Source: Terriglobia bacterium (GTDB lineage Bacteria; Acidobacteriota; Terriglobia; 20CM-2-55-15). From it: a stretch of 64,000 bases of DNA. Every line of letters begins with the position of its first letter. Within the stretch, counting starts at the first letter, position 1. Of this stretch, positions 37,490-59,804 are shown piece after piece. The DNA is taken from positions 990,045-1,054,044 of the forward strand of contig CBDAOY010000007.1 in NCBI GenBank assembly GCA_965198225.1. Reading direction: 5' to 3'. A model generated the notes under the pieces. That model saw nothing but the letters and a program-made list of their open reading frames with translations. It had not been told where the DNA came from and did not search any database. A program made the translations under genes and the position numbers.

Positions 37490-38305
37490 CTAATTTCCCC
37501 TCCGAATATAAATATTTCCGTTGAACGTGGTGAGCTGGAACTCCGGTCCGCCGCCGTTGATGTTGCCCGTGATCGTCTTGTCGATTCGGATTCGGCTACG
37601 GTCGCCGCGCGATTCGTCGATGACTTCCTGCGTTCCGCCGGACTGCCGCTCGATCTCGAAGTCGCTGTAGATCTCTCCGTTGTCGGTCTTCATCTTGATC
37701 GTGGCGTTGACGTTGCCGGGGAGCGTGACGTCGATTTCACCGTTGAGGGTACTGAAAGACATCGGTGTGTCGGGGGTGACGCTCGTGAACGTGACCACGA
37801 CCTCGCCGTTCAAAGCGTTCGCGATGGCCGATCCGCCGATGTTCGTCAGCCGTACTGCGCCGTTGGTGTTGTCGACCTCGATCTCGCCGCGAACATCGGA
37901 CACCACGATATCGCCTCCGCTGACCGTGTCCAGCTCCAACGAGGTGTCGAAGGGAACCCGGAGCCTCACGTTCGTGACACGGGACATCGCGCTGCTTTCG
38001 ATCGTCATCACGTTGTTCCGTTCTTCTACTTCCAGCCCGGTCGACAGGTTCGGAATTCGTCGCAGGCCGCGTGCCCTGGGAGGTGCCTCTCGCCGCGATT
38101 CAGAATCCTGCCCGGCGGCCTCGATCACGACGTCGGAACCGTCGTAGCCCTCGACGGTGATCCCTCCCATGAGGATATCGGCGACGACGCGTCCCGGACG
38201 TGATGGGTCGGAAAACGGAAGCGTGATCTGTTCCTGCGCCGCTACGGGCAGCGCCGTGGCGAGGAGCAACGGGATGATCACAGTTGCGAGATTGGCTTTG
38301 TTCAT
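37490..38305 (-). CDS. DUF4097-like beta-strand repeat protein, secreted (paralogue of 16590-17387)
   Basis: 271 aa; signal peptide; VNG/TNG repeat pattern; last gene of ECF sigma operon. Confidence 0.75.
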   Translation of the reverse strand: MNKANLATVIIPLLLATALPVAAQEQITLPFSDPSRPGRVVADILMGGITVEGYDGSDVVIEAAGQDSESRREAPPRARGLRRIPNLSTGLEVEERNNVMTIESSAMSRVTNVRLRVPFDTSLELDTVSGGDIVVSDVRGEIEVDNTNGAVRLTNIGGSAIANALNGEVVVTFTSVTPDTPMSFSTLNGEIDVTLPGNVNATIKMKTDNGEIYSDFEIERQSGGTQEVIDESRGDRSRIRIDKTITGNINGGGPEFQLTTFNGNIYIRRGN

Positions 38306-38360
38306 GGTCTTCTTCCTTCGAGGCAGAATCGCCGCATTCTCCTCTAATCGTGACGAGTGA

Positions 38361-39179
38361 TCACAAGTTCAGTTGATCGAGCCCCCACGCGGCGCGTTCG
38401 CGCACGCTTTCATGGACGGCTCCGTTCTGCCTCAGTTGTTCGAAAACCCCGATAGACCGCTGCTCCCGGATGTCGACCAGAAAATTGATCAATGAGATCT
38501 GGACCAGTGGCGACTCCTGCCGGGCCAGGGAATTCAAAACCCCCTCCCGAACGGAGGGCGTGTCGCTGAATTCCACGAGAGCATCGATGACGGCGAGCCT
38601 CACGTTCACGTTGGGGTCGTAGTTCAGCGTGCTCAACAGGGAAGTCAGGATCTCTTGGTTCGGTCGAGCGATTTGCGAAGTCCAGTTCACGCCACGCAGG
38701 CGCTGGCTGGCCGATTGCTGTTCGAGAAGGGAGAGGGCGACGAGCTGTCTGAGGCTCTGGACTTCTCCCTCCAGAGTGCGCAGGTCCCCGTTCGGAGCCT
38801 CTGTCACCATGAACTGCGTACCAACGACGAGTCCGACGACGAGAAGCGTCAGTGCCGAACCGAGCTGAACCAGCGGTTGGCTGGGCCACCATCCCGCTAT
38901 CCACTCATTGAGAGATTCGTGCCATCGCGGTCCTGGATGGGCGTTGGCCAGGCCTTCCTCGTAAGCCTCCAACATGGCTTCGAAACGGGCTCGAACTTTG
39001 GGTGAAGGTTCCTCCGTCGGGATCGAACCGAGCTTCGTCCAGATGCCCCTGAGGCTATCCGCCTCCTGCTGGCATGCCGAGCAGGTGTTCCAGTGAGTCT
39101 GGAGGGCTGTCTTGGAGAGCTCATCCAGACTATCGGTCAGATAATCGGGGAGTTTTTCTCTTACTTTTGCGCATTCCAT
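38361..39179 (-). CDS. Anti-sigma factor (zf-HC2 N-terminal domain, single TM)
   Basis: MECAKVREKLPDYLTDSL...H..C..CQ N-terminal zinc-finger; overlaps sigma gene by 19 nt. Confidence 0.7.
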   Translation of the reverse strand: MECAKVREKLPDYLTDSLDELSKTALQTHWNTCSACQQEADSLRGIWTKLGSIPTEEPSPKVRARFEAMLEAYEEGLANAHPGPRWHESLNEWIAGWWPSQPLVQLGSALTLLVVGLVVGTQFMVTEAPNGDLRTLEGEVQSLRQLVALSLLEQQSASQRLRGVNWTSQIARPNQEILTSLLSTLNYDPNVNVRLAVIDALVEFSDTPSVREGVLNSLARQESPLVQISLINFLVDIREQRSIGVFEQLRQNGAVHESVRERAAWGLDQLNL

Positions 39180-39745
39180 GACTTTTTCTCACCTGCAATC
39201 CTGAAATAGACCTTCCTCAGTTCCTGCGTTGCCCGGAAGACTCGAACCTTGACGGTTCCGGTGTCGCAGCCCATGACCTCGCCGATCTGATCGTATTTCA
39301 TGTTCTGAAACCGGCTCAGAATCAACACCTCGCGCTTCTCGTCGGGAAGATCCGCCAGAGCCCGTCGCAACAGCGCGGCCTCCTGCTTTTTCCCAAGGTC
39401 CTCGGGCGCGACCGACGGGCTCATCACCTCCAGCAGCGTGTCTTCGAAGTAGTACTCCCGCTTGTGCTTGTTGAGGTGGTCGATCCGGGCGTTCCGCGCG
39501 ATGTGGTACATCCACGTCGTGAACCGGCTGCTGGCTCGAAACGTAGCACGGTACTTCAGAATCCGGAAGAAGACGTCTTGAACGAGATCCTCGCTCACTT
39601 CGCGGCTGCCGGTCATCCGGATGAAGAAGTCGAACAGCTTCCTGTGATTCCGGTCAAACAGCACCCCCAGCTTGGCCACCTGCCCCTTGCTCACGTCGAG
39701 CATCAGGGCATCATCGCTGACGGAACTGACTTCCTGCGCCTTCAT
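39161..39745 (-). CDS. ECF-family RNA polymerase sigma-70 factor
   Basis: 194 aa; sigma-2 and sigma-4 regions. Confidence 0.85.
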   Translation of the reverse strand: MKAQEVSSVSDDALMLDVSKGQVAKLGVLFDRNHRKLFDFFIRMTGSREVSEDLVQDVFFRILKYRATFRASSRFTTWMYHIARNARIDHLNKHKREYYFEDTLLEVMSPSVAPEDLGKKQEAALLRRALADLPDEKREVLILSRFQNMKYDQIGEVMGCDTGTVKVRVFRATQELRKVYFRIAGEKKSWNAQK

Positions 39746-40342
39746 TCTTCCGATTCCAATCCTGAAAACCGATCGATTGTCAAAAGGTTACAGAAAACCG
39801 CAACCAAAAGGGGCGATGATTTCAGAGTCGGTTTCAGAAGTTGGAGACCAGGGCTTAAAGGATTGATCACAAGCGTCTTATCGCCTGCCGACAGGCAAGA
39901 TTGCGACGACGTGGACGATGTGCCGAATGGAAAGGGACTTCGCAGTTGTGCAGGGAACGGCTCCAGGCCATAACCGACTTCGATCCAGATCCGGCGTTCC
40001 TCGATCGACGTCAGTATCAGGACACCGTTGTCTTCACCCCGCTGCCCGATGCCCCAGCGTTCGAAAAGACGGTTGGCGAAGTCCGCAATCTCCCCGCCCT
40101 GGAGCGACGGCAGCGTGACGACGGCCACCTGCGGACCGGTCTTCTGCTCGAGCTACGCCAGAAACGGTTCCACCTGACCCCGCTCGGCACTCATCACATT
40201 CGCGAAGTCATTGACGTATCCGCCGGGCTCCAGCTGATTGTGGAGCGCATCGCCCGTCTTGGGCCGAGAGCGGGGTCTGGCCGACGCAGACGGTCAGTGA
40301 CAGGAGCAGGGGCAGGAACAGCTTTGTCGTCGGGCGAAGCAT
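39742..40342 (-). pseudogene. TPM-domain (YgcG-like) protein, disrupted (in-frame TAG, frameshift, degenerate C-terminus)
   Basis: Signal peptide MLRPTTKLFLPLLLSLTVCVG then GYVNDFANVMSAERGQVEPFLA*LEQKTGPQVAVVTLPSLQGGEIADFANRLFERWGIGQRGEDNGVLILTSIEERRIWIEVGYGLE spread over two frames. Confidence 0.5.
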
Positions 40343-40390
40343 CGCTCTTCCTATTGTATGCGACAGGGGAGGATGTTGTGATTTCTGGAT

Positions 40391-40422
40391 AAAATAGGGA
40401 CAGACTCCTGTGTCCCTATTTT
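40391..40422. promoter_or_regulatory. Perfect 12-8-12 palindrome AAAATAGGGACA-N8-TGTCCCTATTTT in divergent promoter region upstream of the transferase pair
   Basis: Perfect inverted repeat ~30 bp upstream of candidate GT start. Confidence 0.45.
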
Positions 40423-40448
40423 ATCGGCAACATTTTGAACCACTTAAA

Positions 40449-41150
40449 ATGCCGGCTATGAAGATCTCTGTCATCATCCCAGCCTACAACGAAGCGGACC
40501 AGATCGGGCTGACACTGGACGCCGTCCACGCCGCAGGCCTTGATGACGTTCTGGTGGTCGACGGCGGCAGTGCCGACGAAACGGTTCTGCACGCACAGGC
40601 CGCCCGGGTGACGACGATGGAGGGTCCCCGGGGAAGGGCGAGCCAGATGAACGCCGGCGCGCGAGTCAGCAGCGGGGAGGTCCTGCTGTTTCTCCACGCC
40701 GACACGCGCCTGCCGCCGGACGCGGGCCGGCTTGTCGAGAACGCCCTCGCGGACGATCGCGTCCTCGGTGGTGCCTTCCACCTGCGATTCGACTCCGGCG
40801 GCTGGCTCATGCGTCTGGTGAGCTTCCAGACCAACGTGCGTTCCTACATTCTCGCCCCCTGGGGGGATCAAGCTCTTTTCGTCCGCCGCACCTTCTTCCT
40901 CGAAACCGAAGGCTACCGGCAATGGCGCTTGATGGAGGACGTCGAAATGGCTCATCGCATCAAGAAGAACGGACGATTCACAATGATCCGGACCCCGGTG
41001 GTGACTTCCGGTCGACGATTTCGCGAGCAAGGCTTCATCCGAAACGGAGTCCGCAACCAGATGCTGATGGCGGCATACTATGCAGGCATTGCGCCGGACC
41101 GCCTGGCTCGATTCTATTCCTATGACCGGCGAACAAGAGAGGAACGCTGA
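40449..41150 (+). CDS. Family-2 glycosyltransferase, TIGR04283-like (arsenosugar/rSAM-selenodomain-associated transferase 2)
   Basis: MKISVIIPAYNE...DGGSAD...; partnered with DUF2064 gene; ORF-track start 40410. Confidence 0.75.
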   Translation: MPAMKISVIIPAYNEADQIGLTLDAVHAAGLDDVLVVDGGSADETVLHAQAARVTTMEGPRGRASQMNAGARVSSGEVLLFLHADTRLPPDAGRLVENALADDRVLGGAFHLRFDSGGWLMRLVSFQTNVRSYILAPWGDQALFVRRTFFLETEGYRQWRLMEDVEMAHRIKKNGRFTMIRTPVVTSGRRFREQGFIRNGVRNQMLMAAYYAGIAPDRLARFYSYDRRTREER

Positions 41151-41830
41151 TGAAGGCGCCGCTGGCGACCTCGCTTGTCATCATGGCCAAGGCGCCACGT
41201 GCCGGCCGCACGAAAACGCGCCTGTTTCCCGCTTTGACCCCTGATGAAGCCGCCGGTTTGTATCGGTCGATGTTGCTGGACACGATCGAGCGGCTCCGTT
41301 CGCTGTCCGGGTTCGAGCTCTGGCTGGCATTCACGCCGGAGGACGAACGGGCCTGGTTCGAGACGAACATCGATCCGCCGATCCCGTTGATGCCTCAGCG
41401 GGGCGACGATCTGGGCCAGCGTATGCACCACATCGTCGAAGACAGGTGCTCCGATGGAGCTGAAGCTGTGCTGCTCGTCGGAACCGACCTGCCCACGCTT
41501 CCCGCCGACTATGTGCGTCAGGCGGCGGATTTACTGCACGAGGACGACAGGGTCGTCCTCGGCCCGACCGAAGACGGGGGCTACTACCTGATCGGATTGT
41601 GCGAGCCGGACATCCGTCTGTTCGAACGAATCGAATGGAGCACGGATTCGGTCTTCCAGCAGACCGTCTGTCAGGCCGAGGCGGCAGGAAAGTCCGTCTC
41701 GACGGTTCCGTCCTGGTTCGACATCGACGAGCCTGCCGACCTCGAACGTCTCCGGAGCGCGCTCGAACACAGCGACGAGCAAACCCATCCCCCGCACACC
41801 GCGAACTTTCTGGCGTGTCTCGGAGGCTAG
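41150..41830 (+). CDS. DUF2064 / TIGR04282-like transferase (arsenosugar-associated transferase 1)
   Basis: VIMAKAPRAGRTKTRL N-terminal hallmark; start overlaps upstream stop. Confidence 0.75.
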   Translation: MKAPLATSLVIMAKAPRAGRTKTRLFPALTPDEAAGLYRSMLLDTIERLRSLSGFELWLAFTPEDERAWFETNIDPPIPLMPQRGDDLGQRMHHIVEDRCSDGAEAVLLVGTDLPTLPADYVRQAADLLHEDDRVVLGPTEDGGYYLIGLCEPDIRLFERIEWSTDSVFQQTVCQAEAAGKSVSTVPSWFDIDEPADLERLRSALEHSDEQTHPPHTANFLACLGG

Positions 41831-41869
41831 ACCATTTCGGGCCGTTCGATCGCGCCATAGCTGGCTCGA

Positions 41870-42514
41870 TCACTCCTCCGCTCCCGAATCTCCTTCAGTT
41901 GCGTCCTCCGTGAACTCCGCCAGCGAACGTCGCGCCATCTGTGTCAGCAGCACGGCGACGATCACGGTAGCACCGAGCCCGAACCAATAGAGGACGGTTT
42001 CTCCGGTCGTGGCCTCGCGTTGACCCGACAACATTTCCGCAATGTTGAAAGCGACGGACCCGATGTAGACGTACATCGCGGTGGCAGGGAACATTCCCAG
42101 AAAAGACGCCAATACATAGTCACGCAGGCGGACCCGCGTCAGGCCCAGCGAATAGTTCAGGAAGACGAAAGGAAAGACGGGCGACAGGCGGAGGAGTGTG
42201 ATCAGCTTGAATCCCGATTCTTCCGCGGCCTGGTTCAGCCGGTCGAGGAACGGCTGATTGCGGATCCGCCGCTCTATCCGGTGGCGGAACGCGGTACGAA
42301 CGAGTAGAAACGCGATCGTCGCGGCCAGGACGCTCACGGGAGAAACCAGAGCCGTTCCGAGAATCGGCCCGTATATGAATCCGGCGATCAGCGTCATCGC
42401 AGAGCCTGGAATCAGGGCGATGGTTGCAACTACGTATATAAGTGCGAAAGCGAGGGGACCGATCCAGCCCAGACCCCGGATCGTTTCGACAGCGATTATG
42501 ATCCAGTCGTCCAT
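41870..42514 (-). CDS. TVP38/TMEM64 (DedA/VTT-domain) membrane protein
   Basis: Start MDDWIIIAVETIRGLGWIG; VTT-domain TM pattern; ORF-track upstream extension unlikely. Confidence 0.7.
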   Translation of the reverse strand: MDDWIIIAVETIRGLGWIGPLAFALIYVVATIALIPGSAMTLIAGFIYGPILGTALVSPVSVLAATIAFLLVRTAFRHRIERRIRNQPFLDRLNQAAEESGFKLITLLRLSPVFPFVFLNYSLGLTRVRLRDYVLASFLGMFPATAMYVYIGSVAFNIAEMLSGQREATTGETVLYWFGLGATVIVAVLLTQMARRSLAEFTEDATEGDSGAEE

Positions 42515-42623
42515 GAGTAAGTGGCCACCAGGCCATATCGCGCATGGCTTGCGCACGAACTCGACGTGGGCCATCGGCGTGAAGAAAGCGCCCGGCTCCA
42601 CAAATGTCGCCGGGTGCGGCCTA

Positions 42624-45077
42624 TCAGCAGCACTCGCCGGGTTCGCAACACTCAACGCTGGACAGCGCCGCGTCAGCATCCTTGGCCATCACCAGGAAAG
42701 ATCCCGCGTAAGGCTCTCGCGACAGTTTCGCAGCGGTATCGGTGCACACCTGGACGGGTTCGTTTCGGGGAAAGAGGTGGCCTTCCTCGTCGACGACCGC
42801 CTTCAGCGGGCCCAGATAGACGGCGCGCTGGCCTTCGAAGTTGCACACTCCGTTCTTCCCGAACTTGAAGCCCTGGATGATCAGCGAGTAGAAACGGTAG
42901 CCTTCGATCTCTTTCCAGAAGGTTTTCTCGACGAGCGACAGGCCGTAGAAACCCACCTGCTCGAGCATGGCGAAGTATTCATCTTCGGTCAGTGCTCCCG
43001 AGACGCACTCTCCCCACAGCCGGGGGTTGGCTTTCATGTGGTGGGGAATCTTCGATTCGGACACCGTGTCGGAGATGATCGCGCGGCCGTGATTCTTCAG
43101 AACCCGCCACATCTGCGAAAGTACGCGGCGTTTATCGGGCGAAAGGTTGATCACGCAGTTGGACGTCACGATATCGGCCTTCTGATCCTCCAGCGGAAGC
43201 TGTTCGAGGTATCCGCGCCGGAATTCGACGACGTCGTACCCGAGGGATTCGGCGACGATGCCCCGATTCCGTTCGGCCCGCTCGATCATTTCCGTCGTCA
43301 TGTCGATGCCGATCACACGACCGCTGGACCCGACGCGCTGTGCCGCGATAAAGCAGTCGATACCGCCTCCCGAACCGAGATCGACGTATGTTTCGCCCGG
43401 CTTGATGTCGGCGAACCGAATCGGGCTGCCGCAGCCGTAGGACACCTCGACGACTTCCTTCGGCAGTGCCCGAAGCTCGGCGGGGTCGTAGGCGGTCGGA
43501 CAGCACAGCGCTTCCTGAGGCTCGACGGCCGCCTGGGCGTAGAACTGGCGGACTTTCTCACGCGATCGTTCCAAGTCGACGGAGAGGACGCACGTGGAAC
43601 GGGATGTGGCGATCTCGAACCCCTCCGCTTCAATGGTTTCCATCTCAGAAAGCGATTCACCCATCGCGGCCACGACGGTCGGGGAATCGTATCCGGATGG
43701 GCCCTCATGGCTCTTGTTCTCAGAGGCGATCTGCTCGATCGCTCGGAGCAGCAGCCATTCGTGAACCTTCGAAAACGGGTCTTTTCCAAGGACGGTGCCG
43801 GAGTAGAAGAATGAATGTTCGACGTCACCGCCGCCGCACACGTAGCGCAGGTAGCATTCCTGACAGTCTTCTTTCGCGATGACGCTGGCTCGGCGCAGCG
43901 CGCGCGCGCGCGCGGATGTTTTCCAGATTTCCGCCAGCGGCTGTTCCTCGACGTTGCCCATAAGCAGTTCGGGGACACCGGCCAGCGCCGCGGAAGGATA
44001 GACGGTGCCGTCCGCGTAGACGCAGCAGCTGCTCGTGGCCGCGACCGACAGGTCCATCTTGACCCCGCGTCGGCCCTGAGCCCTTTCCCGGGCGACCTCG
44101 TAGTTGTCGAGCTCGATTCCCTTCGAAGATGCGTTTTCCAGGTATCGTTCCAGCATCTCGATGATGTCGGCGGTGAACGGACTCTGCATCTGGTCGTCTT
44201 CCAGAGCCCTGCCCTGTTTGTGGTCCCACAGCAGGTGATGACGCCGGACGCCGAGTTTGTCCAGGAACTCCGGGAATCGAGGAAGCGTGTCGAGGTTCGA
44301 GCGAGTCACGACAGTGGACACGGTCGGTTCAAACGCGGCGTCCAGCAGGGCGCCGATGCCTTCGACGGTTCGCTCGAACCCGGATCCGCGGATCGCGTGG
44401 TGGGTCTCGCGGTCGGGTCCGTCGATGCTGACCTGTAGGGCCACGTTGCCGTTCGCGGCGGCTTTGAGATTGGCCAGGGTATCGCCCCGGAAGAACATGG
44501 CGTTGGTCAGGATGACGAGTTCGCTGTCGGTGCAGATGGCCCGAACGATGTCGATCAGGTCGCGCCGTAAGAACGGCTCTCCACCGGTGATGTAAAATTG
44601 CCGAACACCCATCTGTTTCGCGTCGTCGACGATCTTCAGCCATCGATCAGTTGGAAGTCCCTCGATCCCTTTCGGGGAAGAATCCACGAGGCAGTGGGCG
44701 CAAGTCAGGTTGCAGCGGTTCGTCAGGTGCAGCCACATCTCTTGCGGCTCGTGGCGCTCGATCAACGCCCCGCGACCCGGATAGGTCGGGTGCTGGAACG
44801 GCTCGCTTCTCAGGAAGTCGGTCCGCAGTGCATGGTTGAGCAGCGTGCTGACGTCGAGCCAGGCTTCGGCCCAGTCCTTGCCCGCGTGGGACCGGTAGCG
44901 GCCCACAAGGTCCGAGACCCTCCGCTGTCCGTCGATCCAGCCGAGTATTTCGACGCCCGCTCGGTTCGTCACGATCCAGTTTGGCGCCTCGGGGTCGAAC
45001 ATCAGTCCGAATTCTCCGATCAGCCGCTCTTCGTAACGTGGGGGCGCGTGAAGTACCTGTTCAGGCAAGATAGTCAT
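42624..45077 (-). CDS. Three-domain fusion: PqqD/RRE-like N-term + radical SAM/SPASM (ArsS-like) + ArsM/AS3MT-type arsenite SAM-methyltransferase
   Basis: 817 aa; CNLTCAHC radical SAM cluster; SPASM Cys motifs; YGCGSP, VDLGSGGGIDCF, SNCVINLSPDK, LWGECVSGAL, C-terminal CCEPGECC. Confidence 0.8.
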   Translation of the reverse strand: MTILPEQVLHAPPRYEERLIGEFGLMFDPEAPNWIVTNRAGVEILGWIDGQRRVSDLVGRYRSHAGKDWAEAWLDVSTLLNHALRTDFLRSEPFQHPTYPGRGALIERHEPQEMWLHLTNRCNLTCAHCLVDSSPKGIEGLPTDRWLKIVDDAKQMGVRQFYITGGEPFLRRDLIDIVRAICTDSELVILTNAMFFRGDTLANLKAAANGNVALQVSIDGPDRETHHAIRGSGFERTVEGIGALLDAAFEPTVSTVVTRSNLDTLPRFPEFLDKLGVRRHHLLWDHKQGRALEDDQMQSPFTADIIEMLERYLENASSKGIELDNYEVARERAQGRRGVKMDLSVAATSSCCVYADGTVYPSAALAGVPELLMGNVEEQPLAEIWKTSARARALRRASVIAKEDCQECYLRYVCGGGDVEHSFFYSGTVLGKDPFSKVHEWLLLRAIEQIASENKSHEGPSGYDSPTVVAAMGESLSEMETIEAEGFEIATSRSTCVLSVDLERSREKVRQFYAQAAVEPQEALCCPTAYDPAELRALPKEVVEVSYGCGSPIRFADIKPGETYVDLGSGGGIDCFIAAQRVGSSGRVIGIDMTTEMIERAERNRGIVAESLGYDVVEFRRGYLEQLPLEDQKADIVTSNCVINLSPDKRRVLSQMWRVLKNHGRAIISDTVSESKIPHHMKANPRLWGECVSGALTEDEYFAMLEQVGFYGLSLVEKTFWKEIEGYRFYSLIIQGFKFGKNGVCNFEGQRAVYLGPLKAVVDEEGHLFPRNEPVQVCTDTAAKLSREPYAGSFLVMAKDADAALSSVECCEPGECC

Positions 45078-45254
45078 GGGGTGTCTCCTGATTCAATGCG
45101 AAGGGCAAGTTCTCCGAACGAATCATTTGATCGACTTTTCTTCAGCCGATATTGTAAGCGAAGTCACCGAGATGGGAAGGGTAGCGTGGATGTCAAAGAC
45201 GAGAGAGGTGAGGGGCGCCGGCAGACGATGACGCGACCTGCCGGCGTCTGCGCC

Positions 45255-45915
45255 TTATCCCGGGCGTCGACGCATCTCTTCCCGGGTGATGAATCCATCA
45301 TCGTCCGCGTCGAGGCGGTCGAAGGCCTCAGTCGGTCGGGTCCACTCGTCACGAGAAACCTTGCCGTCGCCGTCTTCATCCATCTGGAGCATCGCGGCTC
45401 CCCGGCCACGTCCGCCTCTGCCCGGGCGGGAGTTCTGCATCTCTTCGAGAGTGATGAAGCCGTCGCCATCGGCGTCCATGGTCTCGAACATCTGCGCGGG
45501 ACCCGGAAACTCCTGCTGCGACACGCGTCCATCGCCATCGCTGTCGAGCCCCTGGAAACGGGCTTGAGGGTCTGCGCCTCTTCCGCCTCTATCCCGGGCG
45601 TCGCCATCTCTTCCCGAATCCATCATCGTCCGCGTCGAGGCGGTCGAAGGCCTCAGTCGGTCGGGTCCACTCGTCACGAGAAACCTTGCCGTCGCCGTCT
45701 TCATCCATCTGGAGCATCGCGGCTCCCCGGCCACGTCCGCCTCTGCCCGGGCGGGAGTTCTGCATCTCTTCGAGAGTGATGAAGCCGTCGCCATCGGCGT
45801 CCATGGTCTCGAACATCTGCGCGGGACCCGGAAACTCCTGCTGCGACACGCGTCCATCGCCATCGCTGTCGAGCCCCTGGAAACGGGCTTGAGGGTCTGC
45901 GCCTCTTCCGCCTCT
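45255..45915. repeat. Tandem duplication (334 bp + ~327 bp, near-identical) of the 3' end (including stop) of the EF-hand selenoprotein gene; upstream copy carries 7-nt + 2-nt deletions
   Basis: 45255-45588 vs 45589-45915 align almost perfectly; both end CCCGGGATA(A/G). Confidence 0.8.
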
Positions 45916-46746
45916 GCCGCGGCCGCCCCCGAATTGCCGCTGGATTTCGTCACGAGCGAGGAGACCATCATCGTTTCGATCGAGCCGGTCGAACGTCTCG
46001 CCGTCGCCCGTCCACTCTTCCCGTGAGATTGTACCGTCCTCGTTCGTGTCCATGACGCCCATACCGCCCGCAGTCCCGGGCCTCTGCCCCGGCCGAGGGC
46101 GCATACCACGCATGCCGCGGCCGCGACGCTGTCCCTGTTCCTGTCCGTAGGCGGTGATCTCCCCTCTGAGAGCGACCTCGAGCGCTGCCCTGGCTTCGGG
46201 GACATCGAACCCGGCCGGCCCGGGGCGTCCCTTGAAGGCGATGGTGCCGTCGGAGCCCACGACATAGATCCGGTCGGGAAACGCGGCGTACGCATTCGCC
46301 GTCCGGTCGTCGATCTTGTCCAGAATGGTCGGCATCGAGATGTCCAAGGCGGTCGTACAGATGTTGGCTGCTTCCTGGCGCTGCTCGTCGGTTTTGGCTT
46401 GTTCGATCAGGATGCCGTCGATAACATTCGCCGCTCCGAGGTTGCCGTCGGTGGGATGCGCTTCTCGAATGTAGACGAAGAAGAAATTGGCGCGGTCCTT
46501 GTAAGCCTGGTACCAGTTTTCGATGTCCACGACATCGCGGCGGAACGGGCCTCAGGTATAGCTGGCGAAGATCAGCGCGGTCGGTCTGCCCGTCATCTCA
46601 GAAAGCGTAATCTTTTGCTTTCCGTCTTTTGTACTGAGCGTGAAATCAGGCGCCGTATCTCCAGGCGTGGGGCCGCCGCCTCGCCGCTGGGCCGTGGCAG
46701 GGCTCACCAGGACGAGGACCAATAACGCAGACGCGAATGTTCTCAT
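45589..46746 (-). CDS. Candidate selenoprotein: secreted deiodinase-like thioredoxin-fold domain (FASYT-U-GPF, VYIREAHPTDG) fused to six EF-hand Ca-binding motifs; in-frame TGA (Sec) at 46552-46554
   Basis: ORFs 46552..46788 and 45589..46530 are in the same frame separated only by TGA; hairpin CGATGTC-GTG-GACATCG 16 nt after TGA (bSECIS-like); GGAGGAG RBS before ATG 46746; deiodinase motif AHP.DG downstream. Confidence 0.6.
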
Positions 46747-46845
46747 GGGTTTACTCCTCCGTCGACTATAGACAGGGCGGAGCGGCACGGGTTTAAGAGC
46801 GTTTTCAAATCGAATGAGGACCGCGTCCAGCGGTACGAGCTAGCT

Positions 46846-46965: not shown

Positions 46966-47152
46966 CTTGGCTGCTGCGGACTTCTTAGCGCAGCTTTGTT
47001 CTTCGTTCTCTGTCACGAAAGAGCCTCAGTTTCCCCGTTCAGTCGATGATACCGGTGTTGTAACGGGATTTCTTCAAAAAAGCCGGGGTCTGCCGGGGCG
47101 TCGCCCGGATGCGGTAACATTAGGCTGACTTGAGTGTGATGGAGGCAGGTTC

Positions 47153-47431
47153 ATGAAAGCAATATGGCAGGGCGCGGTCTTGGCCGAAAGCGAAGATACC
47201 ATCGTCGTGGAAGGGAACCACTACTTCCCACCGGAGTCGACCGACACCTCCCACTTTCGGCAGAGCCGGACCCACACGGTCTGCCCGTGGAAAGGACAGG
47301 CCAGCTACTACGACATCGTCGTCGACGGCGACACCAATAAGGACGCCGCCTGGTTCTACCCCGAGACGAAGGAAGCCGCCGACCAGATTCGCGGTTATGT
47401 CGCGTTCTGGCACGGAGTCGAAATCACCTAA
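47153..47431 (+). CDS. DUF427-domain protein
   Basis: 92 aa; NHYFP, C.WKG.A.YY, GYVAFW; GGAGG RBS; terminator hairpin GGGGGCAGAGCCCCC downstream. Confidence 0.7.
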   Translation: MKAIWQGAVLAESEDTIVVEGNHYFPPESTDTSHFRQSRTHTVCPWKGQASYYDIVVDGDTNKDAAWFYPETKEAADQIRGYVAFWHGVEIT

Positions 47432-47443
47432 AACGGGGGCAGA

Positions 47444-47470
47444 GCCCCCATTTCCCTCTTTCGTTCTCAA
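47444..47470 (+). terminator. Intrinsic terminator GGGGGC-AGA-GCCCCC + T-rich tract
   Basis: Directly after DUF427 stop. Confidence 0.55.
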
Positions 47471-47539
47471 CTTATTTCTGTTTTGGGCAGCGTCCGACGA
47501 CGCTTCAAAACGATCTTGAGCTTGACAGAAAGCCACCCT

Positions 47540-47555
47540 ATGTAGAAATCTACAT
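47540..47555. promoter_or_regulatory. PadR-type operator ATGT-N8-ACAT (ATGTAGAAATCTACAT) overlapping padR promoter; TTGACA at ~47521
   Basis: Perfect 7-2-7 palindrome matching known PadR box spacing, 4 nt upstream of padR ATG. Confidence 0.5.
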
Positions 47556-47558
47556 TCG

Positions 47559-47864
47559 ATGCCTCGAAACTACATGACATATCCGTCCGGTCTGGTCCTG
47601 CAGGCAATCGCTTCGGGGCATCGGTATGGTTTCGATGTGATGGATGTGACGGGATTGCCGAGTGGTACGGTTTACCCGGCACTTCGGAAGCTGGAACGAG
47701 AGGGCTATGTCCGTTCCAGGTGGGAAGGCGAAGATGTGGCCCGCCAGGCAGGGCGTCCACCGCGGCGTTACTACGAGGTTAGCGGCCCTGGCTCGGCGGC
47801 CTTGACCCAGCTGCTGAAACGGTTTCCAGGACTGGCCCGGGCCCTTGCCGCGGAGGTCTTGTGA
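47559..47864 (+). CDS. PadR-family transcriptional regulator
   Basis: 101 aa; wHTH PadR signature Y.....G...YP.L..LE..G. Confidence 0.85.
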   Translation: MPRNYMTYPSGLVLQAIASGHRYGFDVMDVTGLPSGTVYPALRKLEREGYVRSRWEGEDVARQAGRPPRRYYEVSGPGSAALTQLLKRFPGLARALAAEVL

Positions 47865-48475
47865 GGTGGGCAGGCGGCGAGCGGTCTCTCCGCGTCTGCC
47901 TGTTGTGGATTCGCGCTCTGTCGTTCCTCGTCCCGCCCCCGGGCCGGGACGAATGGATGCGGGAGTGGCGTGGCGAGCTTCTGCATCACTGGAGTGAGTT
48001 CGAGACAGGAGTTCAAAAGTCCCGTGCTGCAAGATTCGATTTGTTCCTACATTCGATGGGCGCCTTGCCTGATGCACTGTGTCTGCTGCGTCAGGAGTGG
48101 AGACTGGACATGCTGATGCAGGATCTGACCTATGCGGTACGGACGCTCGGCGCTCGACCGGGCTTCACCTTCGTAGTGATTTTCATTCTGGCGCTGGGTA
48201 TCGGGGCCAACACCGTCGTGTTCAGCGTCGTCGATGCCGTCCTGTTTCGACCCCTACCGTTTCCCGAGCCGGAGAGGCTGGTTGCGATCTGGGACGAAAA
48301 CACCCAAAAGTCGATGCTTCGTCAGGGTCCGGCGCCCGGCAATCTGCTGGACTGGCGTGACCAGTCACGGGTGTTCGATGGTATCGGAGCCTGGTACGCG
48401 GGCGAGCCCAGGACTGTGCGCGACGAGTCCAGTGCGGAGAAAGTGTCCGCCACTATAGGATTTTATTATGTCTAA
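47861..48475 (+). pseudogene. ADOP/MacB-like FtsX permease, N-terminal 204 aa only, truncated by insertion of integrative element
   Basis: Permease-prefix domain then first TM (FTFVVIFILALGIGANTVVFSV) and start of periplasmic domain; reading frame runs into AT-rich foreign DNA at ~48457 and stops. Confidence 0.7.
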
Positions 48476-48516
48476 TAATATCCATAAGTCTTATTTATAT
48501 CAACAGTATATCGTCC

Positions 48517-48544
48517 TAGACAATCCAGCGCCGTCTGGTATAAT
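48517..48544 (+). promoter_or_regulatory. Integrase promoter: -35 TAGACA, 16-bp spacer, extended -10 TGgTATAAT
   Basis: Canonical spacing, ~70 bp upstream of int ATG. Confidence 0.5.
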
Positions 48545-48613
48545 CCAAGCCTGTTGGGGGATATATTGGGGGAGTGCTGGAGTGCCTCTGCCCCATCGGT
48601 CGAGGGCTCTGCA

Positions 48614-49792
48614 ATGGCCATTCACAAACTCTCCCAACGCAAGGTAGACACCGCCGGTCCCGGCAAATACGAAGACGGCGGCGGGCTCCGCTTGGTGGTG
48701 TCCAATTCAGGCGCCAGGAGATGGGTCCTGCGTTACACCGTCCACGGCAAACGCCGGGAAATGGGTCTGGGCCGTTATCCCGATGTCGGGTTGGCCGATG
48801 CCCGCACGCAAGCGCTACGGCACCGGAGGCAGTTGGCGACGGGCGTAGATCCCATCGCAGCCCGCCGGGCGGCCCCGGAGACGCTACCCACCTTCACCAT
48901 CTGCGCCGCCCGGTATATCCGGGCCCATCGACGGAGTTGGCACAATGCCAAGCACGCGCGGCAATGGGTCCGGAGCCTGAAGACCTATGCCCGGCCCGTC
49001 ATCGGGGCCAAACGGGTCGACGCCATTGAGACTGAAGACATTGTAAAGATACTCTCTTCGATCTGGAACACCAAGACCGAAACGGCCAAGCGCGTGCAGG
49101 GGCGCATCGAAAATGTCCTGGACTTCGCCGCCGCGCACCAATACTGCGGTCCCCTGAACCCGGCCCGCTGGCGGGGCCATCTGGACAAGTTGCTCCCGAA
49201 GCCCTCCCGGGTGAAGCAAGTCACCCACCACCCGGCCATGCCGTATCCCGAGGTGGCGGACTTCCTGCAGGAGCTGTCCGGACACCGGAGTGTATCGGCG
49301 CAGGCGCTGCGGTTTTTGATCCTGACCGCCACGCGCACCAGTGAAGTCTTAGAGGCGCAGTGGCCGGAAATCGATCGGACCGCCGGTATATGGATCCTTC
49401 CCGCCTCCCGGATGAAAGCCCGACGGGAACATCGAGTTCCCTTATCGGATGCGACCCTGGCGGTTCTGGAAGACCTACCCCGCATGGCAGGCCACCCGTA
49501 TGTCTTCGCCGGATCTCGCCACGGACGCCCTCTGTCGAACATGGCCCTACTGAAATTGATGCGAGACATGGGATATTGCGTTGAGGGTTCCCGGGCTCAC
49601 TACGTGCCGCATGGATTTCGCTCCAGTTTTCGGGATTGGTCCGGCGAGGTGTCGAGCTTCCCGCGAGAAGTTGCGGAAATGGCCTTGGCCCACGTGGTGG
49701 AGAACAAGGTGGAAGCGGCCTACCGGCGGGGGGATCTGTTCGCCAAACGGCGCAGCATGATGCAGGCCTGGGCCGACTACCTCAAGAAGTAG
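48614..49792 (+). CDS. int: Tyrosine integrase, P4-type (DUF4102 arm-binding N-domain + catalytic domain)
   Basis: MAIHKLSQRKVDTAGPGKYEDGGGLRLVV...; catalytic R..H..R..Y region (HGFRSSFRDW, conserved Y near C-term). Confidence 0.9.
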   Translation: MAIHKLSQRKVDTAGPGKYEDGGGLRLVVSNSGARRWVLRYTVHGKRREMGLGRYPDVGLADARTQALRHRRQLATGVDPIAARRAAPETLPTFTICAARYIRAHRRSWHNAKHARQWVRSLKTYARPVIGAKRVDAIETEDIVKILSSIWNTKTETAKRVQGRIENVLDFAAAHQYCGPLNPARWRGHLDKLLPKPSRVKQVTHHPAMPYPEVADFLQELSGHRSVSAQALRFLILTATRTSEVLEAQWPEIDRTAGIWILPASRMKARREHRVPLSDATLAVLEDLPRMAGHPYVFAGSRHGRPLSNMALLKLMRDMGYCVEGSRAHYVPHGFRSSFRDWSGEVSSFPREVAEMALAHVVENKVEAAYRRGDLFAKRRSMMQAWADYLKK

Positions 49793-50066
49793 AAGGGCGG
49801 GTGCGCAAGGTCGACGGGCGGCCAACAATTCATGCATTCCGATGATTCCTTGAAGGAGCCCACTGCTTCCGAGGTGTGAAAGAATTCAGGCTGGTGCGGA
49901 TTCGACGCGGAAGTGGTCGGCGGAGTGAAAGGAGATGCGACAGAATCTGAGGATCTACGATTCCCGACCGAACCCCAGTGGGGCTAGTGTAGGCCGTCAC
50001 CAAAGGGCACCGCGGACTCGGTCGATGTGACTTTGATCAGGGAAAATCATGGACGGAACGGGTCCC

Positions 50067-50708
50067 TCAATGGATCGTCGGCTTCTCCACGCCGATGGTG
50101 GACAGTGCGTGTTGGCGGGCTCGCGTGCAGGCAACCACAACGGCATGAAGCTCTTTCTCCGCGATCCGTGAGAGTTCCCGCACGTTCTTGAGGCTCCGCG
50201 CCAGATCCATCTCCGAGCGCGACGATGTTCTCTCCAGACACTCCACCATGCTGTGCATCATGGCGTTGATCTCCCCGAGATTGTCCATGGCTTCGTGAGC
50301 CCGTTCGGGGAGATCCAGCACCTCCTCGGCACCGAACAGGCCGTCGATGAAACCTTCCAGCTCTTCCATGCGGGTGCGGCAGAGGCGACTCAGATCATCG
50401 AGCTCCGCCTTGGCGGCCATCGGTGTCAAACGGAACGGCCGGGTTCCCGATTGATGCTTTGCCAATTCGTTCCAGAGGCCCATGAGAGCCTCAAACAGCT
50501 CGTTGGCGGCAGCGACATCGTCAAACTTCGGCAGTTCTCCTCCCCAGAAAGCTGCTACGGTCGGGAGGGGCGACGCATCAAGATTGGGACTGGCGATGTT
50601 GCCGAGGAAGCGTGTGCGCACGACATGGAATGGAGTCGGACAGGCATAACCGTCCAATAGCCCGCGGACTCGTTCGTCGCCCTGATATCTGTGGGAACGT
50701 TTCTTCAT
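50067..50708 (-). CDS. Hypothetical protein (213 aa)
   Basis: ORF with reasonable composition; no recognised domain. Confidence 0.45.
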   Translation of the reverse strand: MKKRSHRYQGDERVRGLLDGYACPTPFHVVRTRFLGNIASPNLDASPLPTVAAFWGGELPKFDDVAAANELFEALMGLWNELAKHQSGTRPFRLTPMAAKAELDDLSRLCRTRMEELEGFIDGLFGAEEVLDLPERAHEAMDNLGEINAMMHSMVECLERTSSRSEMDLARSLKNVRELSRIAEKELHAVVVACTRARQHALSTIGVEKPTIH

Positions 50709-50795
50709 GCCCGATTAACTTCCGGCCGGCGTTGTGCCATTTCACCTTGTCCCTGCGGAAGCAGATTAGTCCGAAGAAGTTCGAGAATTTCCCGT

Positions 50796-51380
50796 TTACG
50801 TCCCACAGTTCTGGTAGTCCGAGGCCATACACGTGCGCGCCCACTCAATGGCGCGGCTGATCTGGGCACGGGTCATTTCACGTTCAAGGTTGCCCCGCGA
50901 CTCCTCGGGCCCAACGCCGGCGACGCTGACCCTCCCATTGGCGCTGGCGATATTGAACCACATGTGCGCGAGCACGTCGTCCTCGATGCCGCCCAAGCCG
51001 TTGTAGTACATCAACCCGAGGTTGAACTGCGCGCTCGCGTGCCCCTGCTCGGCCGCCATGCGGTACCATCGCGCCGCTTCCGCATCGTCTTCGATGACAC
51101 CCTCGCCGTGGGCATACATGGTTCCGAGATTGAATTGCGCACGCGCGTCCCCCTGCTCGGCCGCTATGCGGAACCACCGCATTGCTTCACGGTCATCCTC
51201 CATGGCGGCCTCGTCATCGTCGTAGGTGCTCCCGAGGCTGTCCGGCGTATCCGCGTTCCCCTGCTCGTCTTCGGCCTGAAAGCGTCCTGGTTCGTCCTGC
51301 GCCGGAACACATGCCGCGGCCAGCAGCCAGGAGCCGCAGAGCAGTGTCATCGCGATCCATCGGTTACGGTGTTTCTTCAC
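50796..51380 (-). CDS. Sel1-repeat (TPR-like) secreted protein
   Basis: Signal peptide; repeated A.AQFNLG.MY..G.GV..D...A..W motifs. Confidence 0.8.
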   Translation of the reverse strand: MKKHRNRWIAMTLLCGSWLLAAACVPAQDEPGRFQAEDEQGNADTPDSLGSTYDDDEAAMEDDREAMRWFRIAAEQGDARAQFNLGTMYAHGEGVIEDDAEAARWYRMAAEQGHASAQFNLGLMYYNGLGGIEDDVLAHMWFNIASANGRVSVAGVGPEESRGNLEREMTRAQISRAIEWARTCMASDYQNCGT

Positions 51381-51620
51381 GGCAGCCTCCCATGTCCTGG
51401 TGATCTTATGCCTTGAGACTGGATCGTCGATTGTAGGCGATCCAGGACGCGACCCTACAAGTACTTGGCGACTCTAGTGTAATGGGATCCGCAGGTTACG
51501 TTGCGTGCCGAACACGGATCACCGCTGGAGTGTGGACACAGCGGAAGGTTCACCGTGCCGACGGACGGGTAAGCCAGCCACCTTGAGCAGGATCATCTTG
51601 GGACGCCATCGGCGGCACAC

Positions 51621-51951
51621 CTAACGTCGGCGGCCGCAGGACACGAATATCTCCACGTCGGCCCTCAGCGCGCGCTCCGTGTTGTGGCTGAAGGCACCCC
51701 GGGCCGCTTTGAAGTAGGCGGCCAGTTGGTCCCCTGCCTCCGCAGCGTATTCAACACGGAACGAGAGCGTTCTCGAGCGGGTTGGTCTGCCCGATCGCCT
51801 TGTGCAGCGTGGCGATGCTGGAGACGTAGCGGCGCACCGTCGCCGGGGCCTTGACGCGCGCCATGTCGTCGATGAAGGCGACCAGGGTGGGGGCGTTGGC
51901 GGGCAACGCCGGCACGACCTGCTGCCGGCAGCCAGGATCTCCATCTCGCAT
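51621..51951 (-). pseudogene. Tyrosine recombinase N-terminal (SAM-like core-binding) fragments, frameshifted remnant
   Basis: VAFIDDMARVKAPATVRRYVSSIATLH in one frame and FSHNTERALRADVEIFVSCG in the other; no catalytic domain. Confidence 0.45.
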
Positions 51952-52008
51952 GTCATCTCTGAAATCAGCATCGGGCGGCCTCCGGTTCAGTCGAAAAAGG
52001 CCGCGAAT

Positions 52009-52042
52009 TTTACTCGCGATAATTCCAGTTATCGCGAGTAAA
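52009..52042. promoter_or_regulatory. Perfect 14-6-14 palindrome TTTACTCGCGATAA-TTCCAG-TTATCGCGAGTAAA (recombinase core-site-like)
   Basis: Perfect arms, 6-bp spacer, ~60 bp from the recombinase fragment. Confidence 0.5.
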
Positions 52043-59803: not shown

Positions 59804-59804
59804 A

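Follow-up and report, generated by a model that had tools for sequence, protein, structure and literature searches.

An RRE–radical SAM–ArsM fusion protein family as a candidate organoarsenical synthase in uncultured bacteria

In the window (the whole stretch of DNA that was analysed, 64,000 nucleotides from a Terriglobia bacterium), a single gene encodes an 817-aa protein that combines, in one chain, an N-terminal PqqD/RRE fold with a radical SAM core, a SPASM domain in reduced form and a complete ArsM methyltransferase, an architecture that an initial annotation had proposed and that our analysis bore out. From this architecture, the conservation of its motifs and its gene neighbourhood, we infer that the fusion may be a bifunctional organoarsenical synthase, a functional substitute for ArsM plus ArsS; we hold this reading tentatively and rate its chances as somewhat short of even. 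Members of the family probably make organoarsenicals by a route other than that of ArsS. The single-chain version had been regarded as unusual, but it represents a large, conserved family, with more than 120 full-length homologues (44–92% identity) among the matches listed (protein clusters), and 80 species-level genomes from at least 10 phyla carry it. The listed homologues were found in metagenome-assembled genomes only, and all of them come from uncultured organisms. We found no curated model covering the fusion family and no paper on it; metagenome annotation currently gives the fusion genes no name beyond “methyltransferase domain-containing protein”, and some members bear the NCBI label “PqqD family peptide modification chaperone”.

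Layout of the locus and domains of the fusion protein

The locus comprises the following features.

40449..41150 (alternative start 40461), plus strand: GT2 glycosyltransferase, TIGR04283 (239.1 bits, cut-off 182)
41150..41830, plus strand: DUF2064/CofC-like transferase, TIGR04282 (195.6 bits, cut-off 134; PF09837, 117 bits)
41870..42514, minus strand: VTT/TVP38 (DedA-type) membrane protein (PF09335, 98 bits)
42624..45077 (stop included), minus strand: 817-aa fusion, RRE–radical SAM–reduced SPASM–ArsM (ORF, Pfam, NCBIfam)
42627..43595, minus strand: ArsM/AS3MT-type As(III) SAM methyltransferase, aa 495–817, including the C-terminal domain and Cys-rich tail
43758..44060, minus strand: reduced SPASM/twitch-like domain, aa 340–440 (PF13186, 32.5 bits, cut-off 21.5; alignment)
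44073..44765, minus strand: radical SAM core, aa 105–335, with C122-x3-C126-x2-C129 and TGGEP (PF04055, 79.5 bits)
44793..45077, minus strand: PqqD/RRE-like domain, aa 1–95 (AF2 model, Foldseek, profile match)
45151..45178, minus strand: promoter-like site between the selenoprotein and fusion genes, in a gap of 178 nt (consensus match only, presumed function)
45291..45915, no strand: perfect 325-bp tandem duplication, 1.9 copies, in the EF-hand region (TRF, 100% matches)
45589..46746, minus strand: secreted deiodinase-like selenoprotein with an EF-hand tail (ATG at 46746, in-frame TGA at 46552–46554)

All of the motifs and genes named in the initial annotation were found where it had placed them, and the two transferases, which it had taken for the TIGR04283/TIGR04282 pair, both passed the curated cut-offs. 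The VTT gene (a 214-aa gene call taken from L083; related loci are designated by L and a number) lies 109 nt downstream of the fusion gene on the same strand, and this position is kept in L085, L086, L090 and L091. The selenoprotein, fusion and VTT genes had been described as a minus-strand operon. All three genes are present, but a single three-gene operon is not established, because the 178-nt gap between the selenoprotein and fusion genes holds the promoter-like site and, ahead of it and after the selenoprotein gene, a GC-rich hairpin (approximately 45210–45245).

The first 90 or so residues of the fusion had been likened to PqqD and RREs, and structure prediction agreed with this. In the AF2 model (pLDDT 82.8 and pTM 0.80 for the whole fusion), three strands (aa 16–38) are followed by three helices (aa 39–85) with a pLDDT of ~90, and the best Foldseek matches of this domain in the PDB were the RREs of TbiB1, PqqD, PbtF and McbB (TM ~0.73). 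The profile match to TbiB1 had an E value of 0.008, and the Pfam PqqD model scored 17.3 bits, under its cut-off of 23.4. The RRE is conserved in all fusion homologues.

The radical SAM core contains the motif CNLTCAHC, and C122, C126, C129 and T164–E167 were invariant across 28 aligned homologues, as was the GGGDxEH motif of the SPASM domain. The cysteines of the latter are limited to C352 and CxxCx5C, with S362 and D418 at two canonical Cys positions, and the complete 7–8-Cys SPASM motif for two auxiliary clusters is not present in the fusion; in the Thermoanaerobaculia-type homologues, the CxxCx5C cysteines are lost as well. An assignment of the radical SAM half to the ArsS clade, as the initial annotation had it, was rejected, an outcome that the annotation had itself listed as counting against its reading. 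When the N-terminal 483 aa were searched, the ArsS model TIGR04167 (cut-off 300 bits) did not figure among the best 25 NCBIfam families, a list that ended at 64 bits, and DUF3641 (PF12345), the C-terminal Cys-rich domain of ArsS, gave no Pfam match in the fusion, where PF13186 was detected instead. No ArsL model figured among the best 25 matches for the N-terminal half either. The closest families were SPASM peptide and cofactor maturases of the StsB, MftC, PqqE and ScmE/F types, all scoring far below the family cut-offs, and Foldseek superposed the N-terminal half on SuiB and SkfB over 400–470 columns. The radical SAM half shares its build with the RiPP maturase SuiB, and the fusion is therefore not ArsS–ArsM by descent.

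The ArsM domain carries the motifs YGCG, VDLGSGGGIDCF, SNCVINLSPDK, LWGEC and a terminal CCEPGECC. It has a class I methyltransferase fold (PF13847, 118 bits) with an invariant SAM motif, VDLGSGGGID, and its best Foldseek matches were ArsM structures. The phmmer E values against 5evj, 8xt7 and 4fr0 ranged from 1e-39 to 1e-30, and identity to solved As(III) methyltransferases was 30–35% over ~300 residues. The As-binding cysteines, whose retention the initial annotation had predicted, all align with those of CrArsM, CmArsM and human AS3MT: C525/526, C549 (YGCG), C641 (SNCV) and C691 (WGEC) have counterparts in 5evj, 8xt7 and 4kw7 and are invariant in the 28 homologues, the reference As(III)-binding cysteines being CmArsM C44, C72, C174 and C224. 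The 4kw7 entry is a CmArsM chain and represents the same protein as 4fr0. PRK11873 (NF008823) scored 241.8 bits against a cut-off of 263 and covered profile positions 30–232 of 272, a narrow shortfall, considering that the domain sits within a fusion. The domain fell below the cyanobacterial arsenosugar-ArsM model NF038099 (171 bits, cut-off 400); its C-terminal domain and Cys-rich tail are like those of arsinothricin ArsM, the model of which (NF040538) aligned through its last profile position and scored 211 bits, far under its cut-off of 500. With CxxxCxxC, TGGEP, DLGSGxGID and all ArsM cysteines invariant across the 28 diverse homologues, both halves look catalytically intact. Curated ArsM-family selenoprotein fusions with redox domains also exist (NF041536 and NF041537).

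Gene neighbourhood across genomes

Across phyla, the fusion remains linked to the transferase pair. The pair lies within 7 kb of the fusion in 22 of 80 genome loci, and in 11 of the 36 loci having at least 5 kb on both sides; the pair-bearing loci span Spirochaetia, Elusimicrobia, Planctomycetota, Gemmatimonadota, Chloroflexi, Omnitrophota, Nitrospirota and Acidobacteriota. About 70% of the fusion loci are without the pair nearby. A PHO4/PiT gene occurs in 21 of the 80 loci, at a median distance of 48 bp downstream of the fusion, and further recurrent neighbours are an NF004991-type FAD disulfide reductase (in ~15 loci), the VTT gene (8 of 80) and DUF547. Many loci have the fusion alone or with PiT only, and, of the same 36 loci with flanks of 5 kb or more, 13 had none of the recurrent module genes. 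In Manganitrophus, PHO4 and a low-molecular-weight phosphatase gene come after the fusion, and the fold of this phosphatase is common to ArsC-type arsenate reductases. An unfused relative was found in a similar setting: a radical SAM protein of 283 aa, with up to 45% identity to the cores of fusions, is encoded next to DUF2064 and two metallophosphoesterases.

True mer genes lie near the fusion in a few loci (L027/L057, L040 and L045), and a Redoxin gene, encoding a secreted thioredoxin-fold protein and sometimes accompanied by CcdA, does so in six others. ArsR, ArsC, Acr3 and ArsB were not among the commonest immediate neighbours, and no efflux pump, protease, leader peptidase or ABC exporter was found among the neighbours of the fusion. 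Across 83 loci, no conserved small ORF that might encode a precursor peptide was present within 2.5 kb, a search that divergent or distant precursors would escape.

Proposed function and relation to known systems

In Synechocystis sp. PCC 6803, dimethyl-As(III) is adenosylated by ArsS, a radical SAM enzyme of the TIGR04167 family, and C–As bond formation by a radical SAM enzyme beside ArsM is established for ArsS and ArsL (PMC12159101; ref 61 there for ArsS, refs 61 and 62 for both enzymes). The fusion resembles the Synechocystis ArsM and ArsS system in that ArsM is coupled to a radical SAM enzyme and associated with TIGR04282 and TIGR04283, and by analogy the proposed chemistry would be identical. 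However, a single chain would here hold both activities, its radical SAM half is of the RRE-rSAM-SPASM type and not TIGR04167/DUF3641, a metallophosphoesterase is absent, and PiT, VTT, the FAD disulfide reductase and DUF547 come in as extra partners. In the arsQML system of Burkholderia gladioli, which makes arsinothricin, a C–As-forming radical SAM enzyme (ArsL) is likewise paired with ArsM; ArsL, though, stands alone as a protein and its cleavage of SAM is non-canonical, and the fusion locus contains no ArsQ permease. The first ~440 residues of the fusion have the same domain order and fold as SuiB, SkfB, CteB, PqqE with PqqD, and MftC, but its SPASM domain is cut to four cysteines or none, and the fusion ends in an ArsM domain, which no described RiPP maturase is known to have. 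Haft reportedly defined an “rSAM/selenodomain-associated” set composed of TIGR04167, TIGR04168, TIGR04169, TIGR04282 and TIGR04283. The window transferases are the TIGR04282 and TIGR04283 members of this set, and the fusion replaces the radical SAM partner; neither a TIGR04168 phosphoesterase nor a TIGR04169 peroxidase-like gene is found in the window.

The pathway would start with the ArsM domain, which is expected to bind As(III) at C525/526, C549, C641 and C691 and, using SAM, to produce methyl- or dimethyl-As(III). By analogy with ArsS, the radical SAM domain would then reductively cleave a further SAM molecule and add a carbon radical, most simply 5′-deoxyadenosyl, to trivalent As, and the single auxiliary cluster site (C352 and CxxCx5C) could accept the extra electron. 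Fusion of the two domains would pass a toxic, volatile trivalent intermediate straight between the active sites, and the invariant C-terminal CC tail together with C496 may serve as a carrier. Downstream, the convergent TIGR04283 and TIGR04282 transferases may remodel the arseno-nucleoside to an arsenosugar-type product. More speculatively, a co-transcribed VTT protein might handle the product at the membrane, and in other genomes PiT might act in supply and the FAD disulfide reductase in redox. The metalloid could also be Sb, Se or Te instead of As.

In favour of the synthase are the seemingly intact state of both halves, the match of the ArsM domain to solved As(III) methyltransferases, the conservation of the full-length fusion and of its neighbourhood, the Manganitrophus locus and the setting of the unfused relative, the precedent of ArsS and ArsL, and the lack of a conserved small ORF near the 83 loci. 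Against it, the radical SAM half fails all ArsS-specific tests and has its nearest relatives, and its architecture, in common with peptide maturases, the conserved RRE has no role in the model, the pair is absent near about 70% of loci and all recurrent module genes from 13 of the 36 well-flanked ones, classical ars genes are not among the commonest neighbours, and one subclade is without the auxiliary-cluster cysteines. To our knowledge, the “arsenosugar” names of TIGR04282 and TIGR04283 come from genome context and not from enzymology, and ArsS and ArsL are the only known C–As-building radical SAM enzymes.

A broader reading, which we consider possible but rather doubtful, is that the family represents a third, independently recruited radical SAM lineage for C–As bonds, of the peptide-maturase type with an RRE, and founds a hitherto unrecognised, ArsM-fused organoarsenical pathway, possibly to arseno-glycolipids, that is widespread among uncultured Acidobacteriota, Nitrospirota, Gemmatimonadota and anammox Planctomycetota. 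A more radical form of this reading takes the RRE as a sign of a carrier, either peptide or protein, that receives the As or passes it on. If the synthase reading is true, the fusion would be a third, structurally distinct solution to C–As bond formation and a single-chain methylation-plus-alkylation machine, organoarsenical production would extend to abundant uncultured phyla of soil, sediment and groundwater, and the metagenome-based reading of environmental As speciation would be affected. TIGR04282/04283, PiT, VTT, the FAD disulfide reductase and DUF547 would be testable candidates for the missing arsenosugar steps downstream of adenosylation. For RiPP and radical SAM enzymology, the presence of an RRE in what seems to be a non-peptide enzyme is a point of interest in its own right.

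Alternative explanations and the selenoprotein neighbour

The superposition on SuiB and SkfB, the StsB-, MftC-, PqqE- and ScmE/F-type matches, the NCBI label of some members and an RRE that is confidently predicted and universally conserved would all suit a RiPP or protein maturase, in which the RRE would dock a peptide or protein tail, the rSAM/SPASM part would introduce a radical modification (thioether, C–C cross-link or oxidation), and the ArsM-like domain would methylate Cys or Sec or would deliver or remove a metalloid on the peptide. We consider this unlikely: a conserved small ORF was not found near the 83 loci, the genes around the fusion encode transferases, a PiT transporter and a disulfide reductase and no protease, leader peptidase or ABC exporter, and the SPASM domain holds at most one cluster, and none in one subclade. 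Moreover, invariance extends to all four As(III)-binding cysteines and to the C-terminal domain specific to ArsM, neither of which a generic peptide methyltransferase would need. Metalloid detoxification without new C–As chemistry also seems improbable. Here, the ArsM domain would methylate As(III), Sb(III), Se or Te, and the radical SAM/Fe–S half would be an electron relay or a regulator (e.g. re-reducing the catalytic disulfide) or would demethylate. The mer genes, the FAD disulfide reductase, the many loci with the fusion alone or with PiT only, and the redox-domain fusions NF041536 and NF041537 are consistent with such a role; however, the invariance of the SAM-cleaving motifs (CxxxCxxC and GGE) argues for real radical SAM turnover, the link to two transferases would go unexplained, and neither an efflux pump nor ArsR is nearby.

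The initial annotation had further suggested that the selenoprotein and the fusion form a coupled Se/As redox-methylation module, which we now regard as very improbable. In its favour are the side-by-side, same-strand position of the two genes in the window, L083, L084 and L090, and the Redoxin genes near the fusion in six other loci. Nevertheless, the selenoprotein gene occurs only in these three relatives, in which fusion identity is at least 92%, and is missing from the syntenic loci L091, L085 and L086 (fusion identity 71% or less), where the fusion directly abuts NTP_transf_9 and PadR; in a co-occurrence survey it was absent from 80 of 82 other loci, with weak matches in two. The gene also borders a mobile, variable region, the gap with its hairpin and promoter-like site separates it from the fusion gene, and its signal peptide would place the product outside the cytoplasm, in contrast to the cytoplasmic fusion. 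On these comparative grounds, the selenoprotein is a lineage-specific insertion, incidental to the conserved module.

The description of this neighbour as deiodinase-like was itself sound. PF00837 spans the UGA with 85.5 bits, the Sec context is “FASYT-U-GPF”, and L090, with an orthologue that is 85% identical, retains the UGA together with the sequence on either side. NF038285, scored with Cys in place of Sec, narrowly missed its cut-off (247 bits, cut-off 250) and aligned over the C-terminal half of its profile only, and a SECIS search detected a 7-bp hairpin with a GUG loop, located 14 nt after the UGA and with a weak fold z-score of −1.4. The 325-bp duplication disturbs the 3′ end of the gene in the window, where the C-terminus is frameshifted; it is absent from near-identical assemblies, and L083, L084 and L090 are without it. 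The deiodinase-like family is among the known prokaryotic selenoproteins (PMC13188914). The window protein shares the thioredoxin fold and the Sec at the redox-active position with bacterial members (PF00837; NF038285), to which it adds the signal peptide and a long Gly/Arg-rich tail with at least four EF-hands.

Domain architecture of the fusion protein

Five genes make up the region. The GT2 and DUF2064 genes lie on the plus strand and share one base, and the VTT gene, the fusion and the selenoprotein (Sec) gene lie on the minus strand:

40449/40461-41150, plus strand, GT2 glycosyltransferase (TIGR04283, 239 bits; cut-off, 182)
41150-41830, plus strand, DUF2064 protein (TIGR04282, 196 bits; cut-off, 134)
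41870-42514, minus strand, VTT/TVP38 membrane protein (PF09335), 109 nt after the fusion
42624-45077, minus strand, fusion ORF (817 aa), convergent with the transferase pair
46552-46554, minus strand, in-frame TGA of the Sec gene

The initial annotation described an arsenosugar locus, and the motifs on which it drew were all present in the sequence. Its assignment of the transferase pair was confirmed by scores above the cut-offs of both models, each of which is titled "arsenosugar biosynthesis glycosyltransferase" by NCBI.

In the fusion, Pfam detected Radical_SAM (aa 118-257), SPASM (aa 348-409) and class I methyltransferase models (aa 555-710), together with a sub-threshold PqqD match at aa 26-86 (17.3 bits vs 23.4). 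An AlphaFold2 model, computed with 28 homologues as input, was confident (pLDDT, 82.8; pTM, 0.80) and showed residues 16-85 as three strands followed by three helices. Modelled alone, this N-terminal domain reached a pLDDT of 88.5; its best PDB matches were leader-peptide-binding RREs (TbiB1, PqqD, PbtF, lasso B1, McbB and ThcOx; TM, ~0.73), and its sequence profile matched TbiB1 (E = 0.008). The proposal of a PqqD/RRE-like N-terminus is therefore supported. The RRE β3 motif DPEAPNW is kept across phyla. The whole model superposed over 400-470 columns on SuiB and SkfB, both of them RRE-radical SAM-SPASM maturases.

Among 28 homologues of 44-80% identity, the radical SAM cysteines C122, C126 and C129, the TGGEP motif, C352 and GGGDxEH (aa 415-421) were invariant. 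The SPASM region is reduced to C352 and CxxCx5C, Ser and Asp replacing two of the canonical cysteines, and the CxxCx5C cysteines are wholly lost in Thermoanaerobaculia-type homologues. In columns 440-500 of the homologue alignment, a subclade (P0066, P0081, P0085, P0093, P0095, P0098, P0099, P0108 and P0115, of which P0093 and P0095 are Thermoanaerobaculia-named) lacks CxxCx5C and retains GGGDxEH and C352, so that these proteins either do without the auxiliary cluster or have a substitute for it.

The same model could also be superposed, over ~300 columns and with 30-35% identity, on CrArsM, CmArsM and human AS3MT. By phmmer, C549 (YGCG), C641 (SNCV), C691 (WGEC) and C525/526 aligned with the As(III)-binding cysteines of solved ArsMs. 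These residues, along with C496, C745, C778 and the terminal C816-C817, were invariant in the 28 homologues, which bears out the view of the C-terminal half as an ArsM domain with As-binding cysteines.

Relationship of the radical SAM half to ArsS

The fusion had been proposed to join ArsS to ArsM. The best 25 NCBIfam matches of the N-terminal 483 aa were SPASM-type maturases and cofactor enzymes, including StsB, Rv1681, AhbD, NirJ2, MftC, ScmE/F and PqqE, all far under their cut-offs. Neither TIGR04167 (cut-off, 300) nor any ArsL model was among these 25, so that TIGR04167 scores below 64 bits; the fusion contains no DUF3641 domain, and no NCBIfam model spans its full length. Since the radical SAM half thus falls outside the ArsS clade, the fusion is not an ArsS-ArsM protein by descent; at most it works like the ArsM and ArsS pair, without being an ArsS. 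The 64-kb window offers no other ArsS candidate, the fusion being its sole ORF of at least 90 aa with CxxxCxxC.

We also considered a pattern in which loci carry either ArsS or the fusion. Two Rokubacteria-type loci with a TIGR04282 homologue (L087 and L088) had no radical SAM neighbour, and a third locus with such a homologue (L089) had an unfused, fusion-type radical SAM protein that is not ArsS; a clean pattern was therefore not demonstrated. The L089 protein (283 aa) shares up to 45% identity with the fusion cores and scores only 58 bits with TIGR04167; its gene and those of two metallophosphoesterases form an array adjoining the DUF2064 gene (L089:8001-11205). The radical SAM lineage of the fusion thus also occurs unfused beside a TIGR04282 gene, and this arrangement may correspond to the fusion system in split form. 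A CMD/AhpD-like gene, a GT87 gene and a large GT2 gene were observed nearby.

Distribution and conserved neighbors of the family

Although the initial annotation regarded the single-chain fusion as unusual, full-length homologues (815-866 aa; 44-92% identity) numbered more than 120 when 5.8 billion clusters were searched, showing that it belongs to a large, uncharacterised family and is more general than first thought. The homologues that have names are annotated as "methyltransferase domain-containing protein", "radical SAM protein with SPASM domain" or "PqqD family peptide modification chaperone". Literature searches brought up no account of the family. With each GTDB species represented by one genome, 80 loci were identified, all in MAGs, from Nitrospirota (including Manganitrophus), Acidobacteriota (Thermoanaerobaculia and Vicinamibacterales), Gemmatimonadota, Planctomycetota (Scalindua and Anammoxibacter), Elusimicrobia, Wallbacteria, Omnitrophota, Chloroflexi, Spirochaetia and others. 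Apparent ~700-aa paralogues in Vicinamibacterales loci proved to be unrelated radical SAM proteins, grouped artefactually by single-linkage clustering. In a divergent ~805-aa subfamily (37-39% identity; L063, L069, L071 and L073), the next gene downstream encodes a ~494-aa B12-binding radical SAM protein in every case.

ORFs up to 7 kb from the fusion were clustered for the window and 82 related loci, and the following counts refer to the 80 genome loci.

Recurrent neighbors of the fusion
TIGR04283/TIGR04282 pair: 22/80 (11/36 among loci with at least 5 kb on both sides)
PHO4/PiT transporter: 21/80 (same strand, median 48 bp downstream of the fusion)
Pyridine-nucleotide-disulfide oxidoreductase: 18/80
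DUF547: 11/80
VTT: 8/80
GT87: 7/80
DUF3179: 6/80
Secreted redoxins: 6/80
Large membrane GT2: 5/80

An unbiased Pfam census of 136 immediate neighbors gave the same ranking (PHO4, 13; DUF2064, 10; Pyr_redox, 6; GT2, 6; DUF547, 4), and ArsR, ArsC, Acr3 and ArsB were not among its frequent families. Downstream of the Manganitrophus fusion come PHO4 and a low-molecular-weight phosphatase. The order FAD reductase / GT-DUF2064 / VTT-fusion / NTP_transf_9-PadR-MacB is kept in the syntenic relatives L090, L091, L085 and L086, with fusion identities to the window of 92% in L090 and 71% in L091.

A mercury-related function was rejected. The oxidoreductase cluster had been scored as MerA, and after splitting only 3-4 loci contained a true MerA with a C-terminal CC; the remainder, ~15 NF004991-type FAD oxidoreductases without this CC, are the recurrent neighbor. 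In some genomes the fusion has true mercury-resistance genes only a few kb away (L027/L057:2895-4980, L040:2011-4492 and L045:8456-9881), including MerA with a C-terminal CC, MerR-like and MerT/P-like genes. The fusion is sometimes found in metal-resistance islands.

In the window, the FAD oxidoreductase gene of the relatives has been lost, and the ~490 bp that remain (39961-40449) carry a fragment of a TPM-domain-like ORF. In the relatives, it is transcribed divergently from GT and encodes full-length proteins of 471-493 aa in L090, L091 and L086 and a 272-aa form in L085. A block at 37490-39745, consisting of an ECF sigma factor, a zf-HC2/HEAT anti-sigma-like protein and a DUF4097 gene, also adjoins the locus in L085, L090 and the near-identical assembly L083.

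Candidate function and the neighboring selenoprotein

The best-supported reading, which we hold tentatively, is that the fusion is a bifunctional organoarsenical synthase. Domain order, conserved motifs and gene linkage are observed, and from these we infer each chemical step: the ArsM domain would methylate cysteine-bound As(III), the radical SAM domain would attach a carbon radical derived from SAM to the trivalent methylarsenical in the manner of ArsS, and the TIGR04283/04282 transferases would remodel the product, while VTT, PiT and the FAD reductase could serve membrane, supply and redox steps. The chief alternative is a maturase acting on peptides or proteins, as the conserved RRE and the SuiB-like build would suggest; however, the As-binding site is fully conserved, the neighbors are of a non-RiPP type, and blastp-short clustering of every ORF of 18-90 aa lying up to 2.5 kb from the fusion at 83 loci yielded no conserved precursor, small ORFs being shared only between trivially related locus pairs. 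We consider a maturase unlikely. A role in detoxification only, with the Fe-S half as an accessory, likewise appears improbable.

The neighboring selenoprotein was initially thought to form a coupled Se/As module with the fusion. The Sec gene lies upstream across a 178-nt gap that contains a hairpin and a promoter-like site. Its secreted product reads ...FASYT-U-GPFRRD... at the in-frame TGA, matches the iodothyronine-deiodinase family across this stop (PF00837, 85 bits; NF038285, 247 bits vs a cut-off of 250) and carries EF-hand repeats in its tail. It belongs to the bacterial deiodinase-like selenoproteins, a known class (PMC13188914). The UGA is kept in the L090 orthologue, and a statistically weak hairpin lies 14 nt downstream of it. 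The gene is confined to the close relatives L083, L084 and L090; synteny checks showed it to be missing from L091, L085 and L086, and tblastn with the deiodinase-like domain gave two weak matches in 82 loci (absent from 80/82). Considering this restricted occurrence, the hairpin and promoter-like site, the export of the product and the border with a variable, mobile region, we regard the Sec gene as a lineage-specific insertion that lies outside the module, and Se/As coupling seems very improbable. Unrelated secreted thioredoxin-fold proteins near the fusion in six other loci provide a weak residual hint.

A perfect 325-bp tandem duplication (45291-45915; 1.9 copies, 100% identity) lies in the EF-hand tail. 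Because 325 is not divisible by three, the duplication shifts the reading frame, which then terminates at a TAG (45589). L083 and L084 (99.8-99.9% identical assemblies) and L090 have a single copy, and the duplication is either strain-specific or an assembly artefact. The mobile and variable region (47007-59884; 12.9 kb) includes a truncated MacB/FtsX (47861-48475), a tyrosine-integrase-like ORF (48554-49792) and a 1757-aa ORF (53564-58837); L083 has in its place a single IS (Transposase_mut) beside TrbL/VirB8 genes. In L087 (7360-7857) and L088 (6847-7344), DUF2064 adjoins an OsmC-like gene called in two pieces (100 aa and 64 aa), a layout that suggests an in-frame UGA, so this gene may encode a selenoprotein.
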